A stretch of 55,933 nucleotides of DNA from Anaerolineae bacterium (GTDB lineage Bacteria > Chloroflexota > Anaerolineae > B4-G1 > DUEL01): contig JASFWK010000003.1 in the NCBI GenBank assembly GCA_050049355.1, positions 1 through 55,933 of the forward strand, given 5' to 3'. Shown piece by piece: positions 8,956 to 49,867 of the stretch (position 1 is the stretch's first letter; the number at the start of each line of letters is the position of its first letter). Both the position numbers and the translations under genes were made by a program. The notes beneath the pieces are model-generated. The model did no database searches. It was not told the DNA's origin and saw only the letters and a program-made list of their open reading frames with translations.

Positions 8956-9501
8956 ATGCCCACAATGAATCTGTGGAAAGAACTGCCCCCGGGGTCCGAT
9001 GCGCCCAACGTGATCTTTGTGGTAGTAGAGATCCCCAAGCGGTCCCGGAACAAGTACGAGTACGACGAGACAGGAGGCTTCATCAAACTGGACCGCGTAC
9101 TCTACTCCTCACTGCACTATCCCGGCGACTACGGCTTCATCCCCCGCACGCTGCACGAGGATGGCGACCCGCTGGACGTGCTGGTGATGACCAACGAGCC
9201 CACCTTCGCCGGGTGCGTCATCGAAGCCCGTCCACTGGGGATCTTTCACCTGGAGGACAAGGGGCTGTTGGACGACAAGATCTTGGCCGTGCCCCACACC
9301 GATCCCCTCTTCGATAGCTACCGTTCTCTTGACGACGTGCCGCCGCACTTCCTGGAGGAAGTCACACACTTCTTCAACGTCTACAAAGACCTGGAGCGGG
9401 CGGAGGTAACGGCAAAAGGATGGGAGGGGCTCGACCGAGCCCACGAGGAGATCGAGCGGGCCATTCGGATGTACATCGAGACGCTGCGGACAGAGCGATA
9501 G
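8956..9501 (+). CDS. ppa: inorganic pyrophosphatase (family I)
   Basis: Motifs EIPKRSRNKYEYD and DGDPLDVLV are canonical family I PPase signatures. Confidence 0.95.
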   Translation: MPTMNLWKELPPGSDAPNVIFVVVEIPKRSRNKYEYDETGGFIKLDRVLYSSLHYPGDYGFIPRTLHEDGDPLDVLVMTNEPTFAGCVIEARPLGIFHLEDKGLLDDKILAVPHTDPLFDSYRSLDDVPPHFLEEVTHFFNVYKDLERAEVTAKGWEGLDRAHEEIERAIRMYIETLRTER

Positions 9502-14400: not shown

Positions 14401-14817
14401 GTAGTAGGTGATAGAGGGAGAGATGAGAAGCAGCAGCGACGTTATCAGCGCTCCTTTCCTTCCCAAGTACCTGCGGAGAAGATATGGAAACGCCACTAGT
14501 AGAGTACCTATCAGGGCGACCGGGAGACGAGCGGTGAAGTCATTGTCGCCAAAGAGGAAATAGGAGAAGGCCGTGGCGTGGAAGAGAAAGGGGCCGTGCA
14601 TCATCGGATTGTGCTGAAAGCCATATCCTGCATACAGATCCCAGGAGAACTTGCAGTGCAGGCTCTCATCGTGGCTCTGCACCCGGTACCCCAACATCAC
14701 CAACCGAGAGACAAGACAGATCAGGAGAATCAGAATGTACAGCCCCTGCTCCCAGTTCAGTGATGCACCGCTAGCAATCTTTCGATCCAGCCAAGATCCC
14801 GCTTGTCTATCATTCAT
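11401..14817 (-). CDS. TIGR03663-type (Agl23-like, GT-C/PMT-like) polytopic membrane protein fused to a C-terminal NHL-repeat beta-propeller
   Basis: The N-terminal roughly 800 aa carry many TM helices, with an HDESLHCKF first-loop motif resembling the GT39 FDEVHFGK 'DE' motif. The C-terminal roughly 300 aa hold six repeats of the NHL pattern (e.g. PRGIAVSPDGYVYVADSRNHRIQKF). Confidence 0.8.
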   Translation of the reverse strand: MNDRQAGSWLDRKIASGASLNWEQGLYILILLICLVSRLVMLGYRVQSHDESLHCKFSWDLYAGYGFQHNPMMHGPFLFHATAFSYFLFGDNDFTARLPVALIGTLLVAFPYLLRRYLGRKGALITSLLLLISPSITYYSRYIRHDIPAILWAMIVIWAIFRYLEKGRDKHLYILAAGLSLMYATKEVAPIYTVIIAVFLVGLFLVRALAQPWERPRLETVFLAALVGIIVGLVVLSMGWLSTRAPAEQPAPPGAAEPGGEASLPFWGLSGGLFALVAFVVAAGAVLYGLWGKLRSFRTFDLIVLIGTLSLPFASPIPIHLVARLGSLVVARSPNPELISPFWSNLANVQPTDYAAPSIYYSGAVLALVLLAVIAIGLAWDRRRWLTAAAIHSVIFLVLFTTVFTNGSGIASGWVGSVGYWLEQQEVERGGQPWFYYFVILPLYDFLPLVGALLTSFYLVVRRAVDSSREKLADRLQDRAEAVPGGEARFLFIPFVVFWALLAWFGYSYAGEKMPWLVVHIALPMILLTGWLLGQLLEQVDWRRMWERKGWALVLLLPALVAALAATVATGVQGPFQGVELDALLVTGTFLGGLVGLGLVGTLVGLLWARVGVRNGFLLIALTGFLTLGLLTARVAYRLSYINFDRPAEFLVYAHEGPDVRTTMEQLEELSLRVGGGPRLIDVTYGPDGSWPFTWYLRNYPNARYYPQQPDREQVLATAVIAGREQWAAVEPHLGDDYYTFDYFYLWWPVEDYRQLTWKRLRDWLTNPRKLTALWKIFYNMDYGLYDEITDGHRTPDDWPLHSPFRLYIRKDVANRLWDFGIGPVPEPTEPEVAPYAEGWRSMSARLVWGMEGSASGQFLAPRGIAVSPDGYVYVADSRNHRIQKFTTDGAFVTAWGTFGGCPNAEPAPGTFCEPWDVAVDPEGFVYVADTWADRVQKFTSDGTFVTEWTSFGERGIYDFSGHSHFYGPRAIVVGPEGAIYVADTGHKRVQVFGSDGEFLREWGQAGSEPGQLDEPVGLAFGPEGRIYVADSWNYRLQVLEPDGDPVRSWPIAGWNNPAVEEKPYVAVDAEGRVYVTDPGHYRVLVFDAEGNYLYGFGQYGFGDTSFGLPMGVALGPEGSLYVTDASNNRVMVFDLPE

Positions 14818-14823
14818 TATCCA

Positions 14824-16659
14824 TCACTCATCATTGCTCACTATGGGGGCCGCCGTCGCCAAGTCCTCTCGCACCCAGAGGACAATCTCCTCCACAGAGG
14901 GTGGCACGGATGTCTCCCGATACAGCCACCAGCGTACCGCTCTGTAGCCTTCCCAACCGGACTGCCAGGTTCGGCGCAAAGGGAAGGTTTCTCCAAAGTA
15001 GCCCGAGGGCGGATCCACCTGAGCCGAGGCAACCACCAAGAGGGGCCGATCCTCCAGTTCACCCAGCGCCGGGAAGCCAGATTCAATCGCCAATGCCTGC
15101 TGATTGAACCGGCGCAGCTCCCAAGCCAGAACTGGCTCAACGTCGCCGAGAAACGTAATTGGCAGCCGCGCGCCTCCGCCCAGATTGACCCTGCTTGTCC
15201 GCTCTGCCACCTCTACCAGCGTGCGCACCTCCGTGGAGATCGCCTCCGGTACCAACAGCTCCCGTGGGTCGGTCGAACGCAGGTGGGAAAGCCCCCAGCC
15301 GGTGGAGAGGGTGACGAGCAAGAGCACCAGCCCCAGCGACAGCGCGCCACCGCGCAGCGCAGCCGCCATCCCTCGTCGTGCCGCCTTGGCTGGCTCCTCG
15401 TCCGGCTCCGGCGTCGAGACAGCGAATCCGAAGGCAGCAGCCAGCAGAATCTGGAGTACCACCGTCAGGCCAGCCAGGGTCAGATCGGCGGGATCGCTGG
15501 TGCGAACGTACCGGGCGAGGGCCAGACCACCGTGGACCCAAAGGACGAGCGAGATGGGCAGATAGAGCCCCTCGTTCACCCAGCGCCCATGGGCCCTGAT
15601 TGACTGCACCAGCTCCTCCACCGCCAACCCTCCCAGCCCCGAAAGTGGCAGCAGGACCCACAGAAGATCGGCGGGCTCACGGCCGGGCATAAGCACCAGC
15701 TGTACGATTCCGACGGCGGCCCAAAAGGTCCACAGCAGCCCCATTGCGTGTCTTCGCCGCATCGCCAACACCAGCCCGGCCACTCCAGCCAGCAATATCA
15801 AAGGCTCGTAGGCCAGCAGGGGGATGAAAGGAGAAGGCAAAGATGATCCCGCCGCGATACCGAAGCGCGCCAGCCAGACCAAGAACTGTTCGGCAGCGGC
15901 TGAGAGCCCGGCCGGGTTAAGCCCCATACCTGTACCCAGGGCCAGCACGGCCACCCCCGCCACGGCGAGTCCGCGCTTCAGGGGCACGTGGACCATCGGC
16001 CACAACCACGCCGTCTGATCCCACCACACCCAGAGCCCCCCCGCCAGGGCCAACACCAGCCCCGCCAGCAGCCCCACGCCCCCCGGTCCGGCCGTCAGCG
16101 CTATCGCCAGCCCCAGTCCTCCCAGCGTCACCAGGCTCGATCGCCAGGTCTCCAGGAAGCGCGCGACGCAGCCCACCAAGAGCATCACTCCCAGCGCAGC
16201 AGGGGTTGCTCCATCCAGCCTGCGAGAGAAGAAGAGGGTGGTAGGAGAAAGGGTCAGCAGGAGCCCCGCCCCTAGCGCTCCCCATCGGCCCAGGTAGTCC
16301 TGCAGGAGGAGCGGAGTCAGCACCAATCCCACCCCCGCCAGAGCGGGTATCAGGCGCGCCAGCGCGTCCCCCCCATCGAAGAGAACGAAGAGGAGCACAT
16401 TGAAGTTGAAGAGGAGAGGCACAGGCTGGTGCACAGCCAATTGCCGGCCCGTGCCCACTCCCTGGGAGGCCAGGTGCGCGGCCAGGGCCTGCCCTGCCTC
16501 GGCCGAATCCAAGGGGACTGCCCCTAAATGGGCCAGTCGAAGGCCGATCGCTACAAGAGCAAGGATAACCCACAGAAGGGGTATAGCCAACCCCGTCCCC
16601 GCCAAGCTGGGGGGCTTGCTGTCCTCAATAGAATCACGCAGCCGGTGACTCGTCATCAT
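14824..16659 (-). CDS. polytopic membrane protein, apparent GT-C-like paralogue lacking the DE motif
   Basis: 611 aa with more than 10 hydrophobic helices and a C-terminal soluble domain. The first loop reads PLDSAEAGQ rather than DE. It lies 6 nt upstream of the next gene. Confidence 0.6.
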   Translation of the reverse strand: MMTSHRLRDSIEDSKPPSLAGTGLAIPLLWVILALVAIGLRLAHLGAVPLDSAEAGQALAAHLASQGVGTGRQLAVHQPVPLLFNFNVLLFVLFDGGDALARLIPALAGVGLVLTPLLLQDYLGRWGALGAGLLLTLSPTTLFFSRRLDGATPAALGVMLLVGCVARFLETWRSSLVTLGGLGLAIALTAGPGGVGLLAGLVLALAGGLWVWWDQTAWLWPMVHVPLKRGLAVAGVAVLALGTGMGLNPAGLSAAAEQFLVWLARFGIAAGSSLPSPFIPLLAYEPLILLAGVAGLVLAMRRRHAMGLLWTFWAAVGIVQLVLMPGREPADLLWVLLPLSGLGGLAVEELVQSIRAHGRWVNEGLYLPISLVLWVHGGLALARYVRTSDPADLTLAGLTVVLQILLAAAFGFAVSTPEPDEEPAKAARRGMAAALRGGALSLGLVLLLVTLSTGWGLSHLRSTDPRELLVPEAISTEVRTLVEVAERTSRVNLGGGARLPITFLGDVEPVLAWELRRFNQQALAIESGFPALGELEDRPLLVVASAQVDPPSGYFGETFPLRRTWQSGWEGYRAVRWWLYRETSVPPSVEEIVLWVREDLATAAPIVSNDE

Positions 16660-16809: not shown

Positions 16810-19338
16810 TCAGGGCCGAGGTACCGCCCCTGGCCGTCGTTGTTCCGACTCCGGTTCACTCGCTGGTGCCTCCGCAGGGCTCGGAACGTATCGGTAGATG
16901 GTCACTCCGCTGGCACTGTAGACGGCCTCCAACGCTTGGTCAAACTTCGCCAGCCCCGGCGCAGGGTAGCGAGATCGCTCCAGGGGGCCAACGTAGACGT
17001 ATCTTATATCATACCGATCCAGCAGCGTCAAGGTCTCCGTCAGCTCCGTGGTCGTATACAACGTCCCAATCTCCGGCTCTCGCCGGGCCGGTTCCTCGTA
17101 GTTGCCGCGCCACTGATGCTGGTGGCCGCCCCATCCCAGCAGAGTCGGCAGGCCAGTGAAGGCGGAAACTCGACCCTCGTAGACATAGGCTTTGAAGTGG
17201 TCGCCGGGCGCCTCAAGGATGATCGGCACGCCACCTACATTCTCGTTAAGCCAGTCAATCGCCGCGAAGTCGGCCGGCCGCGATTGACGCAGATGCGCCA
17301 CCCCATCCAGCGTGGGTGGCCCGCCATACTCCTGTGCCCGGGTGACGACCGCAAGTGGTAAGTAGACCAGGCCCCCCATAATCAGCACCAATCCCGCTGC
17401 CATTGCCCACCATCGCCCTCGCCGCACCAGCCGCGTCAGCCCGTATGCTCCCGCGATCGCCCACATCACCCAGGCCTGGAAATAGAACTTGAAGACCGTG
17501 TTCATTCGCGTGCCGAAGACATCCCGCAGATAGACGAACTCCACTGCCAGCGTGAGAAGCCCGCCAGCAACCACCAAGAGCAACGCATACGCGCCTGCCG
17601 CCGTCAAAGCCTCACGGCTCAGGTTGCCGGCTTCAGCATCGGAGCCCGGAGTCCCAGAGCTTGCAGTTTGAGGCTTCAGGAGAGTGAGCACCGCTGCCGT
17701 CAAGAGCGCCGCCAGAACCAAAGGGGTCCAGGGGCTCAGAAGCCGTCCCCGCAGGCGTTGAGCGATCAACCGGGATGCCTCTGGGATGTGCTCCAGGCTG
17801 GGTATGGGACCGCCACTCCGCCAAGCCTCAAAGTACTGACGGCTGTCCGGCGAGAGCAGGCCAGCCAGCAGGAGAAAGGCAAGAAGCCCAACCAGACCTC
17901 CCACAGCCCAAGCCACCACCTCCCAGCCCTCTACCTTCCGCCGCAGAGCCTCGGCGACCACGAGCCAGCTCACAGGAAAGAAGAGTGGCCCGAACATCAC
18001 CAGGAAATGGGACAACCGGGTGCCGTTGAAGAGGTTGGGCGCTATACCTGCAGCCTGAGATCGGAAGCCCAACCAGAAGGGGAGGTAGAGGAGAAAGCCA
18101 CCGAACGCCAGAGTAAGCACGAGCGCAAACAGGGGGAGAAGAGCGACCTCCGAATTGCGACGGTAGGAGGTCAGGGCGAATGCGGCCACGACAACAAAGA
18201 GGTAGATAGGAAAGTCCCAGGTGTTGAGAAAACCCAGCCCACCCAGGCAGACGGCATAAGTAAGAAGCTCCCAACCTGATAGAGGCAACTCCAGGTTCCA
18301 GATCCTGAGGTTCCGCTCCTTCCATCCGCGGAAGAATAAGGCAAGCGCCAGCGCCAATGCAAGCAAGACGAAGGGGAGCGCCAGCAGGTGGGGATGCATA
18401 TCCCCCAGGAGGAAGGAGAAGGCGGGGAATTCGTCAATGACCTCCCACTCGACTGGATTGGCGCGGGTATGCCAGGGTGCATAGTCGTGCAGCACACGGG
18501 AGGCCTGCCACCACCAAATGAAGCGGGTCGGTACCCACGACCCCTCGGCGAGGGGCGGCGGAGGGGCGTTGATGGAGCGAATATCAAGCCAATTCCAGAA
18601 AGAGGATGAGAACAGCCCTCGGGCGTGGAAGACCTCCAGCAGCCCTTCCAGGTTGCCGGTGAGAGTCACCAGCACCGGTCCCAGGAACCCCGCCCAGTCT
18701 GCCCAGCGCTTCTCCTCGCCCGCCAGCAGCGCATACAGCAGTCCGTAGCTTCCGGTGCAGGTCAAGGCAAAGAGAGCGGCGATGCCCAAGTTGAAAGCAA
18801 TCGTAGATGGGACCGCTGACAGGTGGATCACCATCCCCATCATCAGATAGCCAAAGTAGTAGTACGAGATGGCGAAGCCGGAGAGCCAGGGGTCGTGCGG
18901 GGGAAAGCGCGGCGCGCGCAGGATGGCGTTAACGAAGGCAATCTCCATCCATTTCTCTCCACCTGCGGTCTCAATGCGGGGCATGTGAGCGCGCACCAGA
19001 CACCAGGCGATGAATGCGACGGCGAAAAGCCCTTCAACGATCAGGACATGCCGCCACGGAAGAGAGAAAGCGTCTTCGGAGGAACGGAGCCAAAGCGCCG
19101 TACCGAACGCTGCCAGAAGCCCCAGCGCCACCAGGACTGACCCCGCTGCGTTGGGGAGCCAGCCAAAGACGGAGAAGAGCCAAAACAGCCACCCTCCCGC
19201 CAAGAGCCCAAGCGGACGCGCGAAGGCGTATCCCCGCCCAGGCAGACGGCGGAACAGGCGCAGCGTCAGCGGCAGAGCCGCTAGGCCGAAGAGCTGAAGG
19301 GTAAAGTACCAACGGAGGCCAAGAAGAGCTTGGCTCAC
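16810..19338 (-). CDS. DUF2298 / TIGR03662 'Chlor_Arch_YYY' family membrane protein
   Basis: The signature AISYYYFGY is present (YYY codons at 18856-18864). The GGEKWMEIAFVNA loop and a large C-terminal extracytoplasmic domain are also present. GTG start. Confidence 0.85.
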   Translation of the reverse strand: MSQALLGLRWYFTLQLFGLAALPLTLRLFRRLPGRGYAFARPLGLLAGGWLFWLFSVFGWLPNAAGSVLVALGLLAAFGTALWLRSSEDAFSLPWRHVLIVEGLFAVAFIAWCLVRAHMPRIETAGGEKWMEIAFVNAILRAPRFPPHDPWLSGFAISYYYFGYLMMGMVIHLSAVPSTIAFNLGIAALFALTCTGSYGLLYALLAGEEKRWADWAGFLGPVLVTLTGNLEGLLEVFHARGLFSSSFWNWLDIRSINAPPPPLAEGSWVPTRFIWWWQASRVLHDYAPWHTRANPVEWEVIDEFPAFSFLLGDMHPHLLALPFVLLALALALALFFRGWKERNLRIWNLELPLSGWELLTYAVCLGGLGFLNTWDFPIYLFVVVAAFALTSYRRNSEVALLPLFALVLTLAFGGFLLYLPFWLGFRSQAAGIAPNLFNGTRLSHFLVMFGPLFFPVSWLVVAEALRRKVEGWEVVAWAVGGLVGLLAFLLLAGLLSPDSRQYFEAWRSGGPIPSLEHIPEASRLIAQRLRGRLLSPWTPLVLAALLTAAVLTLLKPQTASSGTPGSDAEAGNLSREALTAAGAYALLLVVAGGLLTLAVEFVYLRDVFGTRMNTVFKFYFQAWVMWAIAGAYGLTRLVRRGRWWAMAAGLVLIMGGLVYLPLAVVTRAQEYGGPPTLDGVAHLRQSRPADFAAIDWLNENVGGVPIILEAPGDHFKAYVYEGRVSAFTGLPTLLGWGGHQHQWRGNYEEPARREPEIGTLYTTTELTETLTLLDRYDIRYVYVGPLERSRYPAPGLAKFDQALEAVYSASGVTIYRYVPSPAEAPASEPESEQRRPGAVPRP

Positions 19339-20907: not shown

Positions 20908-22023
20908 TCACGCCTCCTCAGTACAACGTCTTAGATACCGCGCGGCACTCGGTAGGTGCCAGCGCCTCTGTTCATCCAAACTTGGGTGGGGTCTGAAGGG
21001 ACGAATCGCCTCCTCCAGGCGCAAGTTCCCCGCTATGCGGATGGCGTCAGGATCAATGGTCCCCAGACCCAGCTGACGGCAGTAGTGGAGGTAGCCGACC
21101 TCGTCGGGCTCGAAGCCCATCAACCGGGCGGCCAGACTGTCCACCGCCAGCGGATCTATCCCTGCCAAGGCAATGTGCCAGGGGACGGAGTCTCCTTGAC
21201 CGGGCCCCTCCCCTTCCATCCCTTCCCACCCATCTATCACCGCCAGGTGGGGCCAGACCACGGGGGCAACCAACGCGAGGTTGAGGTTGATTACCGGGAC
21301 CCCCTGGTGCATGGCCATCTTCTGCGATCCTCCCGGGCCGCCCAACAGGGTCCCCTTGACCCATTCGGCCAAGCCCCGTCGGCCGCTCCAGTCAGGTACG
21401 AGCCGACCAAGCCCTCGCAGAACTCGCTGTGCAACTCCGCCCGCCTCCCTACGTTGGTCGGCATACGGGTTCACCAGTGAACCCATCACCACGTTCTTGA
21501 TGGAAAGGGTGACAATGACCGTGTCGTGGGTCTTGGGCGGGCAGACTGAGACACGGAAATCCGCCTCCGCCACCGTGCGCGCCAGGTGCAGGCGCACCGG
21601 GTGCATCCGGCGGTCGAAGACGGTCACCCCCACTGTTTCATCGGCGTTGAGATCGCGCAGCTCGACCCCGTACTCCGCCACCAGTGCTTGGTAGCCGTAG
21701 TTGTCGAAGGCATCCAGTGTGGGAGCCAGCGCCGATCCCTCGCCCACCACTATTGGTCCGCTGAACCGCCCACGCAGGAAGTCCAGCACTGCCCGCACGG
21801 CGTCCACGTGGGTGGCGGCCAACTGACGGTAGGGAGTGACGAAGTTGGGCTTCACCAGTACCCGTCGGACCTTCTTCAGGTCAACCTCGTCGGCGACCGT
21901 CTCCAGCGCCGCCGCCACGGTCCTCTGTCGGTCGGCTTGCCGCGCCAGCCCTACCGTCGTCTCCTGTCTCAGACTCGGCCCCCAGGCACTGGACTCTCCC
22001 TCATTTCGCCATTCGTGATCCAA
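20908..22023 (-). CDS. DUF362 domain-containing protein
   Basis: The VLVKPNFV motif and overall DUF362 pattern are present. The stop abuts the gltX ATG, and the gltX SD GAGGAGG lies inside its 3' end. Confidence 0.75.
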   Translation of the reverse strand: MDHEWRNEGESSAWGPSLRQETTVGLARQADRQRTVAAALETVADEVDLKKVRRVLVKPNFVTPYRQLAATHVDAVRAVLDFLRGRFSGPIVVGEGSALAPTLDAFDNYGYQALVAEYGVELRDLNADETVGVTVFDRRMHPVRLHLARTVAEADFRVSVCPPKTHDTVIVTLSIKNVVMGSLVNPYADQRREAGGVAQRVLRGLGRLVPDWSGRRGLAEWVKGTLLGGPGGSQKMAMHQGVPVINLNLALVAPVVWPHLAVIDGWEGMEGEGPGQGDSVPWHIALAGIDPLAVDSLAARLMGFEPDEVGYLHYCRQLGLGTIDPDAIRIAGNLRLEEAIRPFRPHPSLDEQRRWHLPSAARYLRRCTEEA

Positions 22024-22029
22024 CCCAGA

Positions 22030-23154
22030 TCACTTGTGCCTCATCGCCACCGCCTCCACCAATCCCAGGCCAGTCAGCAATGTGACCAGGGCGCTGCCGC
22101 CGTAGCTGACAAAAGGCAGGGGCACCCCAGTGACCGGGAGCAGTCCGAGGTTCATGGCGATGTTGACCACCACCTGGGAGAATATCGCGGCCGCCACACC
22201 GACCACCAGCAGCCGTCCGAAGCGATCGGGGGCCAGGAGAGCCGCCCGGAAGACCCGCCAGGCCAGCAGAGCAAAGAGAACAAGAAGAAGCACTGTTCCG
22301 ATAAAACCAAGTTCCTCGCCCACCACCGAGAAGATGAAGTCGGTGTGGCGTACGCGGAGAAAGTGGAGCCGGTTCAAGCTCCCTTCCCCATATCCTTTGC
22401 CCCACAGCGCTCCCGAGCCGATACTGATCAGCGCCTGCTGAACGTTGTACAATGCATCCGGGTCTCGGGAAGGGTTCAGGAAATTCAAGACCCGCTCCCG
22501 CTGATACGGCTGCATCGCTTGCCAGAGAGGAAACAGCGCTCCAACTGCCAGGACAGTCGTTCCCAGTAAGTACCCCACGCGAACCTCGGAGACGAAGGCC
22601 ATCATCGCCCAGATTGCCAAGAAGACGAAGGCCGTGCTCATATCTGGTTCCCGGAAGACCAGCACAGCAGGCACCAGGGCCAGCAGGCCCGAAAGCAGGA
22701 AGAACCTCCCTCTAGGACGCTCCCTCTCTTCGTCTCCCACTCCTGCCAGTCGGTCTCCCTTGGTCGGTTCATAATCAAGGACGACAGCGAGGGCCACGAT
22801 TTGGAAGAGGAAAGCAACGAAGGAGGGCTGCAAGCGGAAATTGCCTATGAAGAACCACCGACGCACGTCGCCGAGTTCGCTCTTACCAACGAAGAGAACC
22901 AATACCAGCAGACCTAGTTCGATAAGATATCCCACCCACCAGAAGTGCCTCAGCCACTCATATGGGATGACAGCGATCGCGAAAAAAAGACCCAGCCCGA
23001 TGATCCCGAAGGTCGTCTGCCTTCGCCACAAATCGGCCAGGTCAGGCGTATCCAGATTGGCACTGCGGATCACCGCCACGCCGAAGGCGCAGAGGGCAAG
23101 CACCACCCCCAACAGGATGAAATCAAACTTTCGCCAGTCCCGCCCAGTACGCAT
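22030..23154 (-). CDS. FtsW/RodA/SpoVE-family SEDS protein (RodA-like)
   Basis: 10-TM SEDS pattern with C-terminal GLLPVTGVPLPFVSYGGSA. Confidence 0.92.
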   Translation of the reverse strand: MRTGRDWRKFDFILLGVVLALCAFGVAVIRSANLDTPDLADLWRRQTTFGIIGLGLFFAIAVIPYEWLRHFWWVGYLIELGLLVLVLFVGKSELGDVRRWFFIGNFRLQPSFVAFLFQIVALAVVLDYEPTKGDRLAGVGDEERERPRGRFFLLSGLLALVPAVLVFREPDMSTAFVFLAIWAMMAFVSEVRVGYLLGTTVLAVGALFPLWQAMQPYQRERVLNFLNPSRDPDALYNVQQALISIGSGALWGKGYGEGSLNRLHFLRVRHTDFIFSVVGEELGFIGTVLLLVLFALLAWRVFRAALLAPDRFGRLLVVGVAAAIFSQVVVNIAMNLGLLPVTGVPLPFVSYGGSALVTLLTGLGLVEAVAMRHK

Positions 23155-27222: not shown

Positions 27223-28128
27223 TCAACCTTGGATGGTCCAATCCCAGAACCAGTAGGCCAAGCCTTTCCAGGGTCCCCAACGCTCGAAGGCCGTCTCCAC
27301 CTCCTTACGACCGATCGGTTCCCCCTCATACCACTCCTGCGACACCAGCTTCCGTGCCCAAGTATCCACAGGCAGATAGTCATACCGACCCAAGAGCATC
27401 AGCAGCGAAGCGGCAGCGTAGTCCCCAACACCCTTGATCTCCTTCAAGGCCTGACGCACCTCCGGCGTGGGAACTCCGCCGTCCTTGAACCGCTCCAGAT
27501 CCAACCGACCGTCAGCTGTGCGCCGAGCCAATTGTAATATGAAGGGTGCCCGATAACCCAGGCCCGCCTCACGCAAGCCTTCTTCGGTGGAGACAGCCAG
27601 TTGAACGGGCGCGGGAAAGGCATGGCGGGAAGGGTCGGTGGGGAGAGGATCGCCGTATCTGGTCAGAAGTGTTTCGACCATGCGGATTGTCCCTGCCCAC
27701 GAAGTGTTGGTGGTCAGGATGACCTTGACCGCGTCCTCGAAAACGGTCGGCGAGCGAAGCATGCGCCCCAAAGCTCGATGCTCCACATACGCCAGCTTGG
27801 GCTCCTTCCGAGCCAGGGCGTGGAAAGGAGAGAGATCCTGCCCCAGACCGAGCATCCACCAAACCTTGCGACTGACCTCTTCCCGTTCAGCGCCAGTCAG
27901 ACGCTCCCGCGTCTCCACACTGACCCCGCCCCTGGCCTCCTGGATACGCAGTTCGACGACCCGCTCTGTATCCAACCGCTCGACGCGGGTCAGTAGGCAG
28001 CTGTGCATATCGGCTGCAAAGGGCGGGAGCCGCACCCAACCATGGGACTCCAGGACCGCCCGAAATGAGAAGGGTAGACAAGCCGACAGAGTCAGACGCA
28101 CACCGAACCTCCCGCCACAAGATACCAT
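27223..28128 (-). CDS. HhH-GPD DNA glycosylase (AlkA-like 3-methyladenine glycosylase II family)
   Basis: Helix-hairpin-helix IKGVGDYAAASLLML is followed by the catalytic Asp context LPVDTWARK. Confidence 0.8.
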   Translation of the reverse strand: MVSCGGRFGVRLTLSACLPFSFRAVLESHGWVRLPPFAADMHSCLLTRVERLDTERVVELRIQEARGGVSVETRERLTGAEREEVSRKVWWMLGLGQDLSPFHALARKEPKLAYVEHRALGRMLRSPTVFEDAVKVILTTNTSWAGTIRMVETLLTRYGDPLPTDPSRHAFPAPVQLAVSTEEGLREAGLGYRAPFILQLARRTADGRLDLERFKDGGVPTPEVRQALKEIKGVGDYAAASLLMLLGRYDYLPVDTWARKLVSQEWYEGEPIGRKEVETAFERWGPWKGLAYWFWDWTIQG

Positions 28129-28306
28129 AGGTGACGAGAGGCGAAATTGCGATGGGGTTACGATTCCGTTACACCCCAGACTTCCGTCGAACGTCCGCCC
28201 ACATCGGTATCGGTCGGCGGCGAACTTGGCTCGCTGGACAGGATGCGTATACTTGTCGCCAGGAACGTGCCATCAGGGTACTGCGAACTGGGAGAGGAAA
28301 GCAAGA

Positions 28307-29230
28307 ATGAATCAGACGAAAGCGCTCCACTCCGAGATCATCGCCTGGCTACTCGAGCCAGAAGCGCCCTCCGTTCGCTACTGGACTTTGATCCGACTCC
28401 TCGATCGTCCCCTCGATGGTCCTGAGGCGCAGGAGGCCCGTAGGAAGATCGCGCACCGTGGACCGGTGGTCGAAATCCTCAAGCACTACGCGGGGGACGG
28501 TCGTTGGGAAGGAGAGCGCAGCTACTACACGCGCAAGTACACCGCCACTCACTGGCAGCTGCTGCTCTTGGCAGAACTGGCAGCCGATGGCGACGATGAG
28601 CGGATCGCGGCCGCGTGCCGCCGGATGATCCAGGAGGTTGATCAGGAGCAACGCACGCTGATCTACCCGTGTTTCCACGGCAACCTGATCGGCTACCTCC
28701 ACGCGCTGGGGTACGGTGCGGACGAGCGGGTTCGTCAGTTCGAGCTGGAACTGGGCCAAGCCGGTCTGAGAGGGGGGTGGCGGTGCGAGATCAACGAAGG
28801 TCTGGCCTGCGCGTGGGGTGCCGCCAGGGCTCTCTGGGGCTTCAGTTGCATCTCTCCTTCAGAGCGGGCTCCCCACGTGAATGAGGCGATCGAGGCGGGG
28901 GTACACTTCCTGGGCTGCCATGAGCTGCGGGAGGGGAAGTACCCAACGCCCACCAGGCGCCACCGGCTCTGGGATTGGCTGAGCTTCCCGCTCTTCTATC
29001 AGGCCGATGTCCTCTTTATCCTGGAAGTGTTGGCCGACCTGGGAAGGCTCAGCAGGGAATCCACCTTCGGCGAGGCGGTGAAGTGGCTGGAGGAGCACCG
29101 CCGAAACGACGGGCGCTGGAACGGACGCAGCCCCTACCGGCAGCGGATGTGGGCCCCTCTCGAGAAGAGCGGCCGCCCCAGCAAGTGGGTCACGTGGAAG
29201 GCCCTATACGTGCTGAAGACGATCCGTTGA
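28307..29230 (+). CDS. hypothetical alpha/alpha-toroid (prenyltransferase/terpene-cyclase-like repeat) protein
   Basis: Repeated xDGRWxG motifs (GDGRWEG, NDGRWNG). I start it at the ATG at 28307; the upstream part of ORF 27638..29230 is antisense to the glycosylase gene. Confidence 0.55.
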   Translation: MNQTKALHSEIIAWLLEPEAPSVRYWTLIRLLDRPLDGPEAQEARRKIAHRGPVVEILKHYAGDGRWEGERSYYTRKYTATHWQLLLLAELAADGDDERIAAACRRMIQEVDQEQRTLIYPCFHGNLIGYLHALGYGADERVRQFELELGQAGLRGGWRCEINEGLACAWGAARALWGFSCISPSERAPHVNEAIEAGVHFLGCHELREGKYPTPTRRHRLWDWLSFPLFYQADVLFILEVLADLGRLSRESTFGEAVKWLEEHRRNDGRWNGRSPYRQRMWAPLEKSGRPSKWVTWKALYVLKTIR

Positions 29231-37041: not shown

Positions 37042-37779
37042 ATGCAGGTAACAGTAGTTATCCCCACCTACAACGAAGCGAAGAACCTCGTTCCGATGGC
37101 GGAGGCGCTGTGGGAAGTGGGACCGCCGGAGCTGAGCATTCTGGTGGTCGATGATGAGTCTCCCGACGGTACCGGAGCCATCGCCCACCAGCTGGCGGCC
37201 GAGAATCCCGGACGCTTAAACGTCCTCCACCGGACTGGCCCTCGCGGCCTGGGGCATGCCTACAAGGATGGTTTCCGGTGGGCGCTAGCGCACGGGGCGG
37301 AAGCCGTGGCTCAGATGGATTGTGATTTTTCCCACGCCCCTGCCGATGTTCCCCGGCTGCTGGCACACGTCCCCGACTACGACGTGGTCGTCGGCTCCCG
37401 CTACGTACAGGGAGGCCAGACCGACGAGGAATGGGGGCTGGGTAGGGTCTTCCTCTCGTGGTGGGCGAACTTCTACGCCGGTTTGATTCTGGGCTCCCGT
37501 GTGCGGGACATCACCGCTGGCTTCAAGGCCTGGCGGCGGGAAGCGCTTGAAGGGATTGACCTGGAGAGCGTCCGCTCCCAAGGCTACGTCTTCCAGGTGG
37601 AAATGGCCTACATCTGCGAGCGACTGGGCTATCGCGTCCTGGAGGTCCCCATCTACTTCGAGGATCGACGCATCGGCCGCTCCAAGATGACCATGCCGGT
37701 CAAGATTGAGGCCGCCCTGCGGGTGTGGGAGGTTCGCTGGCGCCACCGGCATCTGCAGCCCCGCCGTGGAGGCGTATGA
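37042..37779 (+). CDS. GT2 polyprenol-monophosphate sugar synthase (Dpm1/Ppm1-like)
   Basis: Motifs [22 protein letters not shown] and the DxD-type DCDFSH. It is a soluble type of 245 aa from the ATG at 37042. Confidence 0.88.
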
Positions 37780-40700
37780 TCCGCCGACGGCTACCTACAC
37801 TGGCTTCAGCCCTCATACTAATCCTGCTGCCACTGACGCTGTTCGCCCCCGTGGCCCTGGGAGACCGCACGCTCCTACCCGCCGATGTCCTCTTCCTGTT
37901 CGAGCCCTACAGAGCAGCAGCTGACGAGCTGGGGGTTGGCATCCCCCAGAACCCCCTGTTCGGCGACCTGATCCTGGAGAACTACGCCTGGAAGCAATTC
38001 CTGGTGGAGGCAATCCACAATCGCGATCTTCCTCTCTGGGATCCTTACACCTTCGCCGGTCACCCTTTCCTGGCCAACGGGCAGCACTCGGCCCTATATC
38101 CGCTGGCTGTCACCTTCTATCTCATCCCCCTGTGGCGTGCCTATGGCCTCTTCATCTGGCTCCAGCTCGGGCTGGCGGGGTGCTGGGCCTACCTATTCGC
38201 GCGTACATTGGGAGTGCGTCGCCTGGGTGCGCTAATCGGCGGCATCACGTTCCAGCTCAGCGGCTTCATGCTGGTCTCCGTGGTCCATCCGATGATCGTC
38301 GCCGGCGCTTCGTGGCTGCCCTTCATCCTGGCGATGGTGGAGCGGCTGATCCAACAGCGACCAGCGCTGGGCAGACGCCCCTCCAGCCTTCCCTGGACAC
38401 TGCTTGGGGCACTCGGTCTCGGCTGTCAGATGCTTGCCGGTCACGCGGAGAATACATACTTCGTGCTGCTGGTGACGGCGCTCTATGCCGGATGGCGGCT
38501 CGTTCACTCTTCCATCCATTCCTCGCCCGCTGACTCCGCACCTGGTCCAAGCCGCGTCCGCCCTGTCTTGTGGTTGATGGCAATGGTGGGGCTGGGGTTG
38601 GCGCTGGGGGCCGTGCAGTTCATACCGCTGTACGAGGTAGCGGCGAGCAGCTTCCGCGCCGGAGAAGCAGCGCCAACTCTGTCCCAGGTGTTGGGCTGGG
38701 CGTACCCGCCGCGGCGGTTGATCACCTTCGCAATCCCAAACTTCTTCGGCAACCCAGCCCATCACGGCCACTTCGACCTTTTCCAGGGACAAGCAGTCCG
38801 GGCCACCGCGAACGCCCTTGGGGAGGATATCCTGAGCCATGATTGGGGGATCAAGAACTACGTAGAGGGCGGCGCGTACCTGGGGCTGTTGCCGCTGTTG
38901 CTGGCGGTTCTGGCTGTCTTCCGACCCCCGAATCTGCGAGTCCCGAACGGCGAAGGTCGTGGATTCGTACTTCGCAGGATCGGAAACTGGTTTCGCCATC
39001 CGTACGTCCCGTTTTTCACGCTGCTGAGCCTCTTCTCCCTGGGTTGTGTATTCGGCACCCCGCTCTATGCTCCGGTCTACGCGCTTCCTTTCTTCCGTCA
39101 GTCCCACTCCCCCTTCCGCTGGGTCTTCCCTCTCACCCTATCGGTGGCGATGCTGGCAGGCTTCGGGATCGAGGTGGTGCGAAGGAGCAGGGAGAAAAGG
39201 ACCCTCTCGCAACCCACCCGCCGCAGTCTACGATCGCGAATCGGCAGCCTATTCCTCCTCAACACCGCTCCCACCCTGGTCTCTATCGTCGCCGCGCTGG
39301 CCTTCTGGGGTGGGGTAGTGACACTGACGGGGTTGGTTCTCAGTCGGGTTCTGTTCGTCGAAATCGAGCCGTTGGTGAAGCGGGCTTTCTGGAACCTGAC
39401 CCTCGCGCCCAACGCCTTCGCCGATCACCGCGCCTTCTACTCTTACGAGTTCCAATGGATCGCCCTCTTCGGTCTCGTTCTGACCGGCACCGGGATCGTT
39501 CTGAGAGTGAGCCGCTGTCCCATCAGCCTCCGTGGCCGACCCGTATGGGAGCCGCTGGCGGTGGTCCTGCTGGTGGCCGACCTGGCCTCGTTCGGCGCGG
39601 GATTCCATCCGGCCGTGGACCCCGCCCTACTGGACTACACCCCGCCGGTGGTGGAGTTCCTCCAAGAGGACACTTCCCTCTGGCGGTACGCCGCCTTCAC
39701 CCCGCCGGGTTCCACCAAGACGATGAACCCCAACGCGGGGATGTTCTACGATCTCCAGGCGGTGGACGGATATGACTCACTCTTCCCACGCCAGTACGCC
39801 GATTACATGGAGCTCATCGAGGAACAGGATGAGCTCAGGTATAATCTCATCGCCCCCTTTCGCAATTGGTCCAGTCTGGATAGCCCCTTGACGGACCTCC
39901 TCAACGTCAAATACGTTATCACTGAGGCTGAGATTCCCAACCCGGCCAAGTACCGCTTGGCCTACCAGGACGAGGCGGTGCGCGTCTACGAGAACCTGAC
40001 GGTGATGCCCCGGGCCTTCACTCTCCCCATCTCCGCAACCGTCGTCGCCGACGACGTGGCCGAAGCCCTGCGCACCCACGACCCCCATCGCTTCGTCATC
40101 GTGGAGTCACCGCCCTCCCGCGCAGCTTCGAATCTGCAACCCGCTGCCCCAAGCCCACAGCCCGTGACCCACTACACGATCAACGAGGTATTCGTGGATG
40201 CGGCTATTCCCGAGCTCAGCTGGCTCGTGCTGACCGACTCGTTCTTCCCCGGCTGGCGCGCCTTCGTGCGGCCGCACGGCAGTGGGGAAGAGGCGGAGCA
40301 GGAGATCACCATAGCGCGAGTGGATGGGAACTTCAGAGGCGTCTTGTTGGAAGCGGGAGAGTGGACAGTTCGCTTCAAGTACAGCCCGAACAGTGTGAAG
40401 ATAGGCAGCTTCCTCTCCTTCATCGCCGGAATGGTGGTTCTCTTTCTTGCCGGATTCTATCTATGGCGCTTTTTCTATCGGGAGGATGCCGAACCCAGCA
40501 CGGTCCAGCGGGTGGCCAAGAACTCCCTTGCCCCCATTGTGACCAACCTCTTCAACCGAGTCATCGACCTCGCCTTCGCCGCGCTTATGGCCCGCATCTT
40601 GGGACCGGTGGGGAACGGCCGCTACGCCACTGCCATCGCCGTCTTCGGCTGGTTCGACATCCTGACCAACTTCGGCTTGAATATGTACCTCCTGCGGGAA

Positions 40701-41981
40701 GTCGCCCGCGAACGAGATCGGGCCGGCCGGCTTCTCGTCAATACCACCGCCCTGCGGCTCACCCTATTAGGCGTGGGGATACCGCTCCTTTCTTTGTTCT
40801 TGTGGGGACGACAGGCACTGGCAGAGCCGATGGCCGCAGACACGGTCAAGGCGATCCTGCTCCTCTATCTGGGCCTCCTGCCAGGGACCGTGGCGATGGG
40901 GTTGGGGGCATTCTTCCAGGCCTTCGAGAGGCACGAGATTCCCGCCGCCATCCAGACCTTCACCACAATCATCAAGGTGACCTTGGGTGTATTGCTGCTC
41001 GTGGGGGGGCTGGGGATCGTGGGCTTGGCCGGCGCCTCTATCGTGACCAATCTCGCCACATTGGCGATATTGGCAATTCTGGCTCACCGACTCATCTTCA
41101 GGGGGGAGCGCGCGCTGCCGCTGGGGTTGGATCGCCAATTGCTACGGCGGATGGTGCGGGATAGCTGGGCGTTGATGCTCGTCCACCTCCTGCAGTCCCT
41201 CTTCTTCAAGGTGGACGTAGTACTCCTGCAGGGAATGCAGGGAGACGCCGTGGCGGGCTGGTACGACGCAGCCTACAAATGGGTGAACGCGCTCAACATC
41301 ATTCCCTCGTTCTTCACCTTCGCCGTATTCCCCGTAATGTCCCGCCAGGCGGCACAGGACCGTGCCGCACTTCTCCGCTCCTACCGCCTTTCGGTCAAGC
41401 TGCTGGTGGTGGTGGCCCTTCCGGCAGCGGTGATCTGCACCCTGACGGCCCGCGGTCTGGTGGGCGTCTTGAGCGGGCCAGCCTTCCTGCCCGACGGAGC
41501 GATCGCCTTGCAGCTTGTGATCTGGTCAATCCCCATTGGCTGGATCAACAGCCTGACCAATTACGTACTCATTGCCTTGAACCGGCAGCGACACGTGGCA
41601 GTCGCCTCGGCGGTGGGGCTGGCCTTCAACCTGACAGCCAACGCACTGCTGATCCCCCGCTACAGTTACGCCGCCTCGGCGGTAGTGACGATCCTCAGCG
41701 AAGCAGTGCTGCTCGGGGCCTTCTACATCCTACTGCGGCGCGACCTGAGGCCCGTTGGATGGGTGCAAGTCCTGGGCCGGCCCGCCCTGGCCGGACTGAC
41801 GATGGCGGCAGCTGCCTGGGCGGTGGCTCCCTTCAACCGGCCACTGGCCGTCATGGCGGGTTTGGGGATCTACCTGACGGGACTGGTCCTCCTGCGGGTC
41901 CTCACACCGGAGGAACTGGGGATGTTGACGCCCTTAATCCCCTGGAAGAGACGCGAGCGCTCCGTTCCCACTCCTCGGTAG
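37776..41981 (+). CDS. fusion protein: YfhO-family GT-C-like membrane protein (N-terminal, about 900 aa) + MOP/Wzx-type polysaccharide flippase (C-terminal, about 490 aa)
   Basis: N-terminus reads [10 protein letters not shown]...[23 protein letters not shown] (YfhO-like). From about nt 40500 the pattern is Polysacc_synt-like ([22 protein letters not shown]...GWYDAAYKW...). The ATG at 37776 overlaps the GT2 stop as ATGA. Confidence 0.8.
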
Positions 41982-42037: not shown

Positions 42038-42463
42038 TCACTGGCTCAGTTGCTCCACCGTCGCCACGATCTCCGCCCGGTCTGGCATCCCACCCTTCCC
42101 ATAGATCACCTCTCCCGTCCCGTCGAAAACCAGCATAGTGGGCACGCCGCGTACGCCATAGCGTACGGCCAGCCCACGTCCCACGGATGACAAGAGGCTA
42201 ATTCGCATCACCTCCGCCCGGCCCTCAAGTTCCGCCTCCAACCCGTCCACGACGGGCTTGGCCGTCAGGCAGGGAGCTCAAGTGTTGGAGTAGATTTCCA
42301 CCACAATCGGCCGACCGGACCGCACACGTTGGTCGAACTCCTCGATCGAGGAGAGAGCAGTGCCCTGCGTGCGCAAGATCAGCCAGGCCGCCGCCAGCCC
42401 CCCGATCAGAATCAGGATCAGCCAGTTCTCTCTCAGAAACTGTGCAATGAACATGATCTCCAT
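42038..42463 (-). CDS. membrane-anchored thioredoxin-fold protein with in-frame TGA at the CXXC position (candidate selenoprotein, or a nonsense pseudogene)
   Basis: ORFs 42278..42463 and 42038..42250 share one frame, separated by the TGA at 42278-42280 and 9 sense codons. Read-through gives ...RPIVVEIYSNT-U-APCLTAKP...GVRGVPTMLVFDG..., which is thioredoxin-like. An alternative start lies at 42454. Confidence 0.6.
42238..42261 (-). other. SECIS-like hairpin downstream of the in-frame UGA
   Basis: CCAAgCCCGUC-GUG-GACGGGUUGG forms 10 bp with one bulged G. It begins 16 nt after the UGA, and the G-containing apical loop lies about 27 nt from the UGA. Confidence 0.4.
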
Positions 42464-42616: not shown

Positions 42617-43033
42617 TCAGCGACAGCTACACTCCTCCGGCGAATCGCAGTCGCAGGCCTCCGCGACCGCCTCGATCTCCACACGCGCCCCCAGCGGCAG
42701 CGCCGCCACCTGCACCGCCGACCGGGCGGGCGGTTCCTCTGGAAAGAACTCAGCATAGACGCCATTCATCCGGGCGAATTCCCCGATATCCTGCAAGAAC
42801 ACGGTCGTCTTGACCACATGCCGCATGCAGGAACCGGCCGCCTCCAAGACCGCCTCGACGTTCTTCAGCGCCTGGCGGGTCTGGGCCTCAATGTCGGGTC
42901 CTACGAACTCCTTCGAACCAGGCGCAATGCCCAACTGGCCGGCGGTGTAGATGAGACCGCCCACCCGAACTGCCTGGGAGTAGGGTCCCACGGCAGCGGG
43001 GGCTTCGTCGGTAGTGATGACTTCCTTGTTCAC
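42617..43033 (-). CDS. ridA: RidA/YjgF-family reactive intermediate deaminase with a Cys-rich C-terminal tail
   Basis: Motifs PAAVGPYSQAV and ARVEIEAVA. The GTG start is preceded by GAGAGGAGG. An extra tail EACDCDSPEECSCR follows. Confidence 0.88.
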   Translation of the reverse strand: MNKEVITTDEAPAAVGPYSQAVRVGGLIYTAGQLGIAPGSKEFVGPDIEAQTRQALKNVEAVLEAAGSCMRHVVKTTVFLQDIGEFARMNGVYAEFFPEEPPARSAVQVAALPLGARVEIEAVAEACDCDSPEECSCR

Positions 43034-43169: not shown

Positions 43170-43646
43170 CTACAACAGAAACGAGAGGAATCGGTCCAGC
43201 AGATTCGCGTTGCTGGTGCGAGCGGACCTGCTGGTTGGCGGCGCAGAGCCGGGGAGGTGTCTCAGTCCGTGGAGACGGTTAGCGGGATTGAACGGGCGAC
43301 TGCAGACCGGAATACCTCTTCGCCACAGCAGGTACTCGGCCCAGTTGGCCTGTCGCCGCTTGACGCGGAAGGTCAGGTATTCTCGCGTGAAGCCGCGATC
43401 CCAGATTCTGACTCCATAGCGGGCCAGGAACCTCTCGATATCAATACCTCGCCATGGGCAGTCGCGCGGTACGTAGATTGGCCATGTGTTGCGAAAAGTG
43501 ACACAGTCAACAACCTCACCGAGTACCCCGAGGACTCCGCTGCGTTGCGCGGCACCTCGCCAATCTGCGTTTAGGAACGTCGAGACGAACCCTTCAACCC
43601 GGCTGATCAGATCCAGGTGTGCGAGCCACTCCAGTGGGTCGCCCAT
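43170..43646 (-). CDS. hypothetical protein (158 aa), candidate SOS-regulated
   Basis: Strong SD AGGAGGTGGAAG directly precedes the ATG. It has its own TTGCCA-17-TATAAT promoter with a LexA-type box at the transcription start. I recognise no family. Confidence 0.7.
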   Translation of the reverse strand: MGDPLEWLAHLDLISRVEGFVSTFLNADWRGAAQRSGVLGVLGEVVDCVTFRNTWPIYVPRDCPWRGIDIERFLARYGVRIWDRGFTREYLTFRVKRRQANWAEYLLWRRGIPVCSRPFNPANRLHGLRHLPGSAPPTSRSARTSNANLLDRFLSFLL

Positions 43647-43730: not shown

Positions 43731-44066
43731 ATGGACATACGACAGCAGTTGTTGGAACTACTGAGCGAATGGCTTGCCGAGTCCCGCGCCATGGCCGGCT
43801 TTGAGCGGGGTTTGTGCGCAGGGTGCGCGGGAGCTTTGATCCTCTCCTTTGGCGCCTTCATGGTTCGCATCTGGTGGGGAAAGGTCACAGCTCCCTACAG
43901 ACCCCAGAAGGTGACCCTCACCACCGCCAAGACCCCTGCACAGGTCCAGCGCGATAGCTGCCTTTGGCTCCTGATTGCCCTTCTCGGCTGCCTGGTCCTG
44001 ACAATCGTCTTTCCGGAGGCACCTGGGGAAGTCTGGCAGGTACTGCTGAATGTGCTATTCGGTTAG
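43731..44066 (+). CDS. hypothetical small membrane protein (111 aa, two predicted TM helices)
   Basis: The ATG is preceded by GAGGGCGGGCA. Hydrophobic segments are LCAGCAGALILSFGAFMVRIWW and CLWLLIALLGCLVLTIVF. It sits between a LexA-type box and uvrB. Confidence 0.6.
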   Translation: MDIRQQLLELLSEWLAESRAMAGFERGLCAGCAGALILSFGAFMVRIWWGKVTAPYRPQKVTLTTAKTPAQVQRDSCLWLLIALLGCLVLTIVFPEAPGEVWQVLLNVLFG

Positions 44067-49126: not shown

Positions 49127-49867
49127 ATGAGACGCTTCGGCTGGCAGACACTTCTGGGTGCGGCCCTGGTTGTGCTCTCTGTGATCTTCTACCTGCTCCA
49201 CTACTTGATCTTCCGGGACCCCCACCACATCTTCACCTTTCTGGTAGGGGATGTAGCCTTCGTCTTCATCGAGGTCTTGATGGTGACGCTGATCATACAC
49301 CGCCTGCTTGGTGAACGAGAGAAGCAAGCGCGGCTGGAGAAGCTGAATATGGTCATCGGCACCTTCTTCAGCGAAGTAGGGACCAGGCTATTGGGCGGCC
49401 TCTCCCAGCTAGATCCAAAGCTGGATAGGCTTAGGGGAGAGCTTGTGGTTGGCGAGGGCTGGTCTGAGCGGCAGTTCTCGAAGAGGGGGCAATGGCTGCG
49501 AGACTACGACTATGAGGTTGAGCCGGAGAGAGCCGACTTGAAGGGATTGAAGCATCTCCTAGTAGCCAGAAGGGACTTCTTGCTGAGATTGCTGGAGAAT
49601 CCCAATCTACTGGAGCATGAATCCTTCACCGAGCTCCTTCGGGCAGTCTTCCATCTAATGGAGGAACTGGACGCCAGGAGGAGCCTGGAAGAGCTGCCGA
49701 CCACAGACTATGCACATCTCGCCGGTGACATGGAAAGGGTATATGTCCTGCTTGTCCGCGAGTGGTTGGAGTACATGCAGTACCTGAAGAGCAGCTACCC
49801 GTATCTCTTCTCCCTGGCCCTGAGGACGAATCCGTTTGATGCGGATGCGTCACCGGTAGTGGGGTAA
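49127..49867 (+). CDS. hypothetical membrane protein (two N-terminal TM helices + helical cytoplasmic domain)
   Basis: The ATG is preceded by AAGGAGTACTGAGAC. The composition looks coding, but I recognise no family. Confidence 0.6.
   Translation: MRRFGWQTLLGAALVVLSVIFYLLHYLIFRDPHHIFTFLVGDVAFVFIEVLMVTLIIHRLLGEREKQARLEKLNMVIGTFFSEVGTRLLGGLSQLDPKLDRLRGELVVGEGWSERQFSKRGQWLRDYDYEVEPERADLKGLKHLLVARRDFLLRLLENPNLLEHESFTELLRAVFHLMEELDARRSLEELPTTDYAHLAGDMERVYVLLVREWLEYMQYLKSSYPYLFSLALRTNPFDADASPVVG

Follow-up and report, generated by a model that had tools for sequence, protein, structure and literature searches.

A probable selenocysteine-encoding, membrane-anchored thioredoxin gene, recorded as two fragments, in an Anaerolineae contig

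Thioredoxins in which selenocysteine (Sec) takes the place of a redox-active cysteine form an established class of bacterial selenoproteins. The family Trx (PF00085, UxxC) is listed as experimentally verified, with an example from Treponema denticola, and further thioredoxin-fold UxxC families are predicted (PMC13188914 Table 1); Sec-containing thioredoxins have also been predicted in Geobacter, Anaeromyxobacter and Carboxydothermus (PMC1794560). The accompanying bacterial Sec insertion sequence (SECIS) elements have been described as having a 6-8 bp stem and a conserved G in the loop (PMC4605307). The bacterial consensus (bSECIS), on which bSECISearch relies, specifies an apical loop of 3-9 nucleotides (nt) that carries a G within its first two positions, usually as N1-G-[G|U]-N-N2, together with an upper stem of 4-16 bp, a UGA-loop spacing of 16-37 nt and a minimum free energy (MFE) of -7.5 kcal/mol or lower (PMC13188914). 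Here we describe a gene of this kind on a 55,933-nt stretch of DNA from an Anaerolineae bacterium (assembly GCA_050049355.1, contig JASFWK010000003.1), referred to below as the window, which is the complete contig. The gene lies on the minus strand at 42038..42463 and comprises 141 codons plus a terminal TGA at 42038-42040. Judged from its sequence and that of its relatives, we consider it very probable that it genuinely encodes Sec and carries a functional SECIS.

Gene calling divides this region into two open reading frames (ORFs) on the minus strand, 42278..42463 (61 aa) and 42038..42250 (70 aa), which share one frame and between which stand only the TGA at 42278-42280 and nine sense codons. 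The sequence agrees in this with a preliminary description of the locus, which had proposed that reading through the TGA yields a single 141-residue protein. That protein has the form MEIMFIAQFLRENWLILILIGGLAAAWLILRTQG...RPIVVEIYSNT-[TGA]-APCLTAKPVVDGLEAELEG...YGVRGVPTMLVFDGTGEVIYGKGGMPDRAEIVATVEQLSQ, and the residues directly after the TGA read RPIVVEIYSNT-[TGA]-APCLTAKPVVDGLE. The in-frame UGA (42278..42280, minus strand) corresponds to residue 62, the proposed Sec, in the slot of the nucleophilic cysteine of a CxxC motif, here U-A-P-C; the resolving cysteine, Cys65, is encoded at 42269..42271 (minus strand) by TGC, as it is in 99/99 distinct TGA-type sequences. Thus, the minus strand of 42038-42463 holds one gene and not two small ORFs. 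Every public record examined nevertheless cuts the gene in two, its halves being entered separately, either unnamed or under the name 'thioredoxin-related protein', and a JGI contig carries the same two half-ORF calls. A genome-wide reassignment of TGA is ruled out, as 25 of the 44 likely genes in the window end in TGA.

With Cys put in place of Sec, the read-through protein matches PF00085 at 40.9 bits (cutoff 23.5; E 2.1e-10) over profile positions 7-102 of 103. The predicted thioredoxin-fold domain covers residues 40-137 (42053..42346, minus strand) and includes the cis-Pro motif VPT, with P108 at 42140-42142. Thioredoxins in the PDB are matched at E 1.5e-12, with the TGA sitting on the first Cys of CGPC; in these alignments VVEIYSNT-x-APC lies over LVDFWAEW-C-GPC, and GVPT over the GIPT of the cis-Pro loop. 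Because this register sets U-A-P-C over C-G-P-C, the TGA at 42278-42280 occupies exactly the position of the nucleophilic cysteine, where the preliminary description had placed it on the basis of the thioredoxin core. Among relatives, the segment YGVRGVP is invariant.

Relatives were collected in several steps. Only eight homologues came from a word-indexed protein search, and each is a C-terminal half of 77-80 aa that starts just past the motif. On the contigs of all eight, a small ORF abuts in the same frame with a TGA at the same codon, the junctions reading YSNT-TGA-MSC, YSNT-TGA-SVC or YSNF-TGA-STC. A scan of species-representative genomes found 41 loci (loci are given L numbers below); in these and the first set together, 33 sequences carry TGA at the Sec codon and none carries TAA or TAG. 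Their hosts are Chloroflexota (Anaerolineae, Thermoflexia), Myxococcota and Acidobacteriota metagenome-assembled genomes. Scanning of metagenomes with a broader pattern brought at least 412 confirmed relatives, and the 80 best of these were retained. In the pooled set, the codon is TGA in all 104 unique TGA-type sequences, never TAA or TAG and, in answer to the alignment of orthologues that the preliminary description had called for, not a Cys codon; the 50 codons on its 5' side are free of stops in 104/104, and both halves of the gene are conserved. Cys homologues do exist: the Anaerolineales loci L013, L017 and L018 have TGC at the same codon and the same transmembrane (TM) anchor, followed by the downstream peptide SKP[KR]VDR[LM].

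The default reading of an in-frame stop, and the one that gene callers and public records convey with their two small ORFs, would be a nonsense mutation that has left a pseudogene, or a sequencing or assembly error, in what was a Cys-thioredoxin gene. This does not fit with the same TGA recurring in 104/104 relatives from three phyla at 35-60% protein identity, with the stop being TGA every time, or with the purifying selection seen on both halves and an upstream frame that is always open. Moreover, an independent assembly from another sample (L047, Logan SRR11696424) is 100% identical to the window sequence, and the same two half-ORF calls recur on the JGI contig. Conservation and the identical assembly exclude the TGC/TGT-to-TGA mutation or base-call error that had been kept as the alternative at the outset, and the probability of this explanation is close to nil.

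The second element of the gene is a hairpin directly downstream of the UGA. Its core comprises 8 bp at 42240..42258 on the minus strand, with a 5' arm AGCCCGUC (42251-42258), a GUG loop (42248-42250) and a 3' arm GACGGGUU (42240-42247), and encodes the peptide K-P-V-V-D-G-L. In the window this core can be extended to CCAAgCCCGUC-GUG-GACGGGUUGG at 42238..42261 (minus strand), with arms CCAAGCCCGUC at 42251-42261 and GACGGGUUGG at 42238-42247; the extended hairpin starts 16 nt past the UGA and its loop starts 27 nt past it. The preliminary description had drawn this structure as a 10-bp hairpin with one bulged G. Its position and loop distance are borne out, but the bulge and the outer CC/GG pairs belong to the window and some relatives and are not conserved across the family. 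The minimal 20-nt hairpin folds at -11.1 kcal/mol (z = -3.5) and a 29-nt hairpin at -14.2 kcal/mol (z = -2.2). A 71-nt stretch around it does not stand out from shuffles, so that, taken from the window alone, the predicted hairpin is weak evidence, and its significance comes from comparative data.

In comparison with published elements, all four bSECIS constraints are satisfied: the loop reads G-U-N, or C-GUN-G with the closing pair open, the stem has 8 bp, the spacing is 27 nt and the MFE lies within the limit (PMC13188914), in line with the earlier proposal that the geometry falls within the bacterial range. The spacing between UGA and loop is exactly 27 nt in every family member. Like the SECIS elements of E. 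coli fdhF and Moorella thermoacetica fdhA, the hairpin is a stem-loop inside the ORF, directly 3' of the UGA, with a small apical loop presenting G and then U. It has no primary-sequence similarity to these or other described SECIS elements, and it differs from them in having a triloop, which becomes a loop of 5 nt when the closing C-G is open, in lacking the conserved bulged U in its core, and in being preceded on its 5' side by extra fixed positions, namely TGC and a G at the third base of codon +5. Since the SECIS would lie within the coding region, it would dictate the peptide K-P-V/I-V-D-G/R-L that follows the active site.

Codon usage and covariation both point to selection at the RNA level. 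Of the first 33 sequences, 32 use CCC for the Pro of the stem and all 33 use GGG for its Gly, whereas other conserved Pro and Gly codons of the same gene show codon entropies of 1.2-1.8 bits. The Val codon of the loop is free (GTG 20, GTC 11, GTT 1, GTA 1); wobble positions are, in other words, fixed in the stem and free in the loop. Compensatory changes occur in three of the eight stem pairs when all 104 sequences are considered. The third base of Pro pairs with the first base of Gly/Arg as C-G in 59 cases, U-A in 43 and U·G in 2, with no C·A (Fisher p = 3e-27); the first base of Val/Ile pairs with the third base of Asp as G-C in 80, A-U in 18 and G·U in 6, again with no A·C (p = 2e-15); and for the third base of Lys and the first base of Leu the counts are G-C 75, G·U 13, A-U 7 and unpaired 9 (p = 1e-3). 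Two of these couplings join an amino acid replacement to a silent change: Gly to Arg (GGG to AGG) occurs solely alongside the silent CCC to CCT on the opposite arm, and Val to Ile (GTC to ATC) solely alongside the silent GAC to GAT. No protein-level explanation accounts for the coupling of a replacement to a silent change.

Over 99 distinct rows of the alignment, 98.4% of cells are paired, compared with 22-44% when the 3' partners are slid. There are 64 doubly changed cells, and the covariation score observed was reached by none of 500 column shuffles. Fitch parsimony on a flanking-protein tree, which was built from short sequences and is noisy, requires that each of the two main pairs changed state eight times or more; the covariation is therefore not one inherited event. 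Co-variation of the hairpin, which the preliminary description had named as a check on itself, is thus present in three pairs. The hairpin also disappears where Cys replaces the proposed Sec: fold energies range from -9.6 to -16.6 kcal/mol in six members of the Sec form, whereas the same stretch of Cys-form genes, which have TGC at the codon, gives -1.3 to -7.4 kcal/mol with unrelated structures.

Further sites fixed at the RNA level lie past the UGA and 5' of the hairpin (42261-42271 of the window, minus strand; alignment columns 13-23). The resolving codon is TGC in 99/99 sequences, and codon +5 ends in G in 95/99 although it encodes eight different amino acids; no protein reason for either constraint is apparent. 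Within this 5' element RNAalifold proposes a mini-helix (G14-C23, C15-G22), in which no covariation is seen.

A different use of the hairpin would be regulation or ribosome pausing, with termination at the UGA as the main or intended outcome, giving a 61-aa membrane peptide and perhaps a separately initiated C-terminal fragment. Bacterial Sec insertion is generally inefficient, so that some truncated product is likely, and gene callers do find start codons shortly past the TGA. A phmmer search of 1.84 billion cluster representatives had as its query only the C-terminal 70 aa, which begin past the hairpin peptide. Among the best 150 of the 219 matches, 126 are C-terminal halves (110 aa or less, with the match beginning at residue 1-11); the others include about nine CxxC proteins of full length (134-168 aa) with a TM anchor, and 14 long proteins of several domains. 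In the C-terminal halves, the called starts are scattered (MSC, VC, VAKP, MAKP, MDGL, VDRL, MNGI and others) and conserved neither in position nor in type, which argues against a genuine internal start. Neither half would by itself form a functional thioredoxin fold, as the UxxC motif straddles the junction; the existence of full-length Cys homologues shows the ancestral unit to be a single protein; and the strict 27-nt spacing and G-U loop fit the SECIS model. Termination as the main or intended outcome is very improbable.

By Pfam, the protein that would result from Sec insertion belongs to the thioredoxin family, yet profile scores indicate that it is no orthologue of TrxA or TrxC, the respective equivalogs not being reached (TIGR01068 44.9 versus 96.8 bits, NF006898 39.2 versus 138, NF008229 40.1 versus 125). 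Of the curated NCBIfam models for thioredoxin-like selenoproteins (among them SaoT, the HUIPC-motif family and TsoB), TsoB alone was listed at E up to 0.01, with 19.1 against a required 805 bits. DsbE (18.5 versus 123.15 bits) and TlpA (15.8 versus 230) are both far under their cutoffs, a Pfam scan of the read-through protein gave no Redoxin or AhpC-TSA match, and PF13098 scored 25.9 bits, just under its cutoff of 27. The family shares with known Sec-containing thioredoxins a thioredoxin fold above the PF00085 threshold, Sec in place of the N-terminal Cys of CxxC, retention of the resolving Cys and the cis-Pro, a SECIS in the coding region directly downstream, and the existence of Cys homologues. 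Unlike them, it carries an N-terminal TM anchor of one or two helices, its active site reads YSN[TFY]-U-x-x-C-L in place of W-U-G-P-C, and the Sec form is the majority state. It is apparently a new, uncurated subfamily of the known UxxC thioredoxin selenoproteins.

In the window protein the anchor spans residues ~14-30 (WLILILIGGLAAAWLIL; 42374..42424, minus strand), and an N-terminal TM segment is also found in 101 of 101 evaluable relatives, with one helix in 91 and two in 10. Where there are two helices, the loop that precedes the second contains 4.0 Lys plus Arg residues, compared with 1.5 after that helix, and because of this basic loop the thioredoxin domain probably faces the outside of the cytoplasmic membrane. 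TlpA, ResA and CcmG/DsbE are likewise built from a membrane anchor at the N-terminus and an outward-facing thioredoxin-fold domain that carries an xxC motif, and the same architecture occurs in the predicted selenoproteins 'thiol:disulfide interchange protein' (PF13098) and 'thiol-disulfide isomerase-like' (cd02966). By sequence, however, the present protein is nearer to classical thioredoxin than to the TlpA/Redoxin/AhpC-TSA type, and with TlpA and DsbE it shares the architecture alone; no CcdA or DsbD partner was seen nearby. It presumably also lacks the central insertion typical of TlpA-like proteins.

Sec decoding is well established in the groups concerned: use of Sec is known from Chloroflexi, Acidobacteria and delta-proteobacteria, myxobacteria included, and some Dehalococcoidia have 46-49 selenoprotein genes (PMC1794560, PMC13326102). 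tRNA scans of 94 loci returned a single tRNA-Sec, located in L023 at 9355-9451 (minus strand), identified by ARAGORN and matching RF01852 at 79.2 bits against a gathering threshold of 47. It has a UCA anticodon and G73 and no encoded CCA. This tRNA gene is 8 kb from the selenoprotein gene, between genes for an ABC-transporter ATPase and a quinone oxidoreductase, and selA and selB are not adjacent. It is a partial substitute for the machinery of the window's own genome. In the same locus, ARAGORN also reported a 'tRNA-???' with a two-base anticodon at 1056-1140, in what should be the N-terminal half of the selenoprotein gene, which is probably a false positive.

The character of this tRNA bears on the possibility that the UGA is recoded to something other than Sec, either to Cys by a selC* tRNA-Cys(UCA) with SelB* or by Cys-tRNA(Sec), or to Trp or Cys by hairpin-stimulated near-cognate read-through. 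A selC* tRNA-Cys with a UCA anticodon can indeed read a Sec UGA as Cys, and the selC*/SelB* system resembles the present one in that its signal would pair a SECIS-like hairpin with a UGA in frame at a redox Cys/Sec position (PMC5389517). Sequence data draw no distinction between Sec and Cys at residue 62, and no Sec machinery gene lies on the window contig. On the other hand, selC* has been reported in Firmicutes, Thermodesulfobacteria, Nitrospirae and delta-proteobacteria, always together with a full Sec system, and Chloroflexi are not among these phyla (PMC5389517). The L023 tRNA has the G73 of a true tRNA-Sec (Sec/Ser identity) and not the U73 of selC*. If Cys were the residue required, a plain TGC would suffice and spare the gene the cost of a SECIS, as in the rare Cys forms, and Trp or Gly at the nucleophile slot would inactivate a thioredoxin. 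We regard recoding to a residue other than Sec as improbable.

Several observations weigh against the assignment of the gene as a Sec-encoding gene with a functional SECIS. The window, although a whole contig, contains no tRNA, selA, selB or selD (tRNA scan, Pfam on 30 ORFs, tblastn), and some 874 kb of family loci yielded the one tRNA-Sec and no SelA, SelB or SelD; tblastn with the E. coli SelA, SelB and SelD proteins over the window and all loci (874 kb) found weak matches only, in distant Cys-type loci. No Rfam family is matched in a gathering-threshold scan of the window or in a permissive scan of 42150-42330, which means only that no curated model covers the hairpin at 42240-42258. Around that hairpin, a 71-nt stretch is no more stable than its dinucleotide shuffles (z = 0.01), and its fold energy was accordingly rejected as evidence. 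The signal for an outward topology is weak in one-helix forms (1.88 versus 1.35 Lys plus Arg). Conservation at the peptide level is biased by ascertainment: the Sec-type loci were partly retrieved by patterns that contain the hairpin-encoded peptide (AKPVVDGL; KP[VIS]V[DN][GR][LI]E), and conservation of AKPVVDGL was discounted for this reason. Free of this bias are the codon choice, since the degenerate patterns left codons unfixed, the covariation between arms, since the two arms are compared within each sequence, and the phmmer result. Finally, the doubt that we retain about Sec stems from the incorporation of selenium, which is predicted from sequence, and from the machinery of the window's own organism, which would have to be encoded outside this contig.

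For the most probable case, that of a Sec-encoding gene, we infer SelB binding and Sec insertion by analogy with described systems. When the ribosome approaches the UGA at 42278-42280, the downstream mRNA would fold into the 8-bp hairpin, presenting the G-U loop 27 nt past the UGA. SelB·GTP·Sec-tRNA(Sec) would bind the apex of the hairpin through the C-terminal winged-helix domains of SelB, and SelB would then hand Sec-tRNA(Sec) to the A site, such that the UGA is read as selenocysteine and not as a stop. In the finished protein, Sec62 would attack as the nucleophile and Cys65 would resolve the intermediate in thiol/selenol-disulfide exchange.

The gene neighbourhood gives some indication of the context in which such a protein may act. 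In many Anaerolineae loci, redox and stress genes recur within 5 kb upstream (L001, L002, L006-L010, L012-L014, L017-L019 and L021): these encode a TrxB-like flavoprotein (Pyr_redox_2), OsmC, AP endonuclease 2, a UbiE-like methyltransferase, a cupin and a CxxC protein of about 217 aa of the Thioredoxin_3/Grx-like type. A gene for a CsoR-like repressor also occurs among the neighbours in Anaerolineae loci. In some loci a canonical 112-aa Trx gene lies directly upstream (L003 483-1003, L004 1822-2342, L005 2923-3443; also L011, L020 and L021), and its stop overlaps the start of the selenoprotein gene, which suggests translational coupling; in these same Trx-preceded loci a Zn-ribbon gene and a gene for a CsoR-like metal-sensing repressor lie downstream. 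The redox/stress synteny is not present in the window, where the neighbours are RidA (42617-43033) and a convergent gene for a 1418-aa YfhO/Polysacc_synt membrane protein. The thiol-redox and oxidative-stress genes of the Anaerolineae neighbourhood suggest a role in redox defence or repair, and the protein is most likely, as far as can be predicted, a membrane-tethered Sec-dependent thiol-disulfide oxidoreductase with such a function.

Tentatively, and with slightly less than even confidence, we propose that the window gene is the founding example of an uncatalogued and widespread subfamily of membrane-anchored, probably outward-facing Sec-thioredoxins in Anaerolineae, other Chloroflexota, Myxococcota and Acidobacteriota, in which Sec would be the default in about 90% of clusters and which would have its own SECIS class and a 5' element (TGC ... 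G-GC). In the public collections searched, hundreds of relatives likewise appear as pairs of unnamed fragments, and no curated NCBIfam model exists for them; a family model with a Sec exception would mend many annotations in Chloroflexota, Myxococcota and Acidobacteriota and enlarge their selenoproteomes. A membrane-tethered and probably extracytoplasmic thioredoxin in which Sec is the majority state would also be a useful case for asking why Sec is favoured over Cys in some redox niches. The hairpin, with its Gly to Arg and Val to Ile replacements tied to silent changes on the opposite arm, is a clear illustration of how a SECIS inside an ORF constrains the protein. These results extend a well-known class and do not overturn current understanding.

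Other in-frame TGA candidates in the window all proved to be either the normal ends of genes or off-frame artefacts in DNA rich in GC. One of them is the TGA at 22030-22032, which ends a RodA/FtsW-family gene (22030-23154, minus strand) and is followed in frame by a DUF362 gene (20908-22023); it was not counted as a recoding candidate, being an ordinary gene junction with no redox motif. Six ORFs in the window (218-1552, 14824-16659, 27638-29230, 43170-43646, 43731-44066 and 49127-49867) have a coding-like GC content at third codon positions and no Pfam match at E up to 1e-5. In an otherwise housekeeping context, next to genes for MgtE, an RNase D-like protein and a beta-CASP protein, the plus strand encodes at 4455-4832 a protein of 125 aa with a match to Phage_holin_4_2 (97 bits). 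The window also encodes three very large membrane proteins: a PMT_2 protein with an NHL-repeat propeller (1138 aa, 11401-14817, minus strand), a DUF2298 protein (842 aa, 16810-19338, minus strand) and the YfhO/Polysacc_synt protein that converges on the selenoprotein gene (37725-41981, plus strand). Together these suggest extensive envelope glycosylation or polysaccharide functions.

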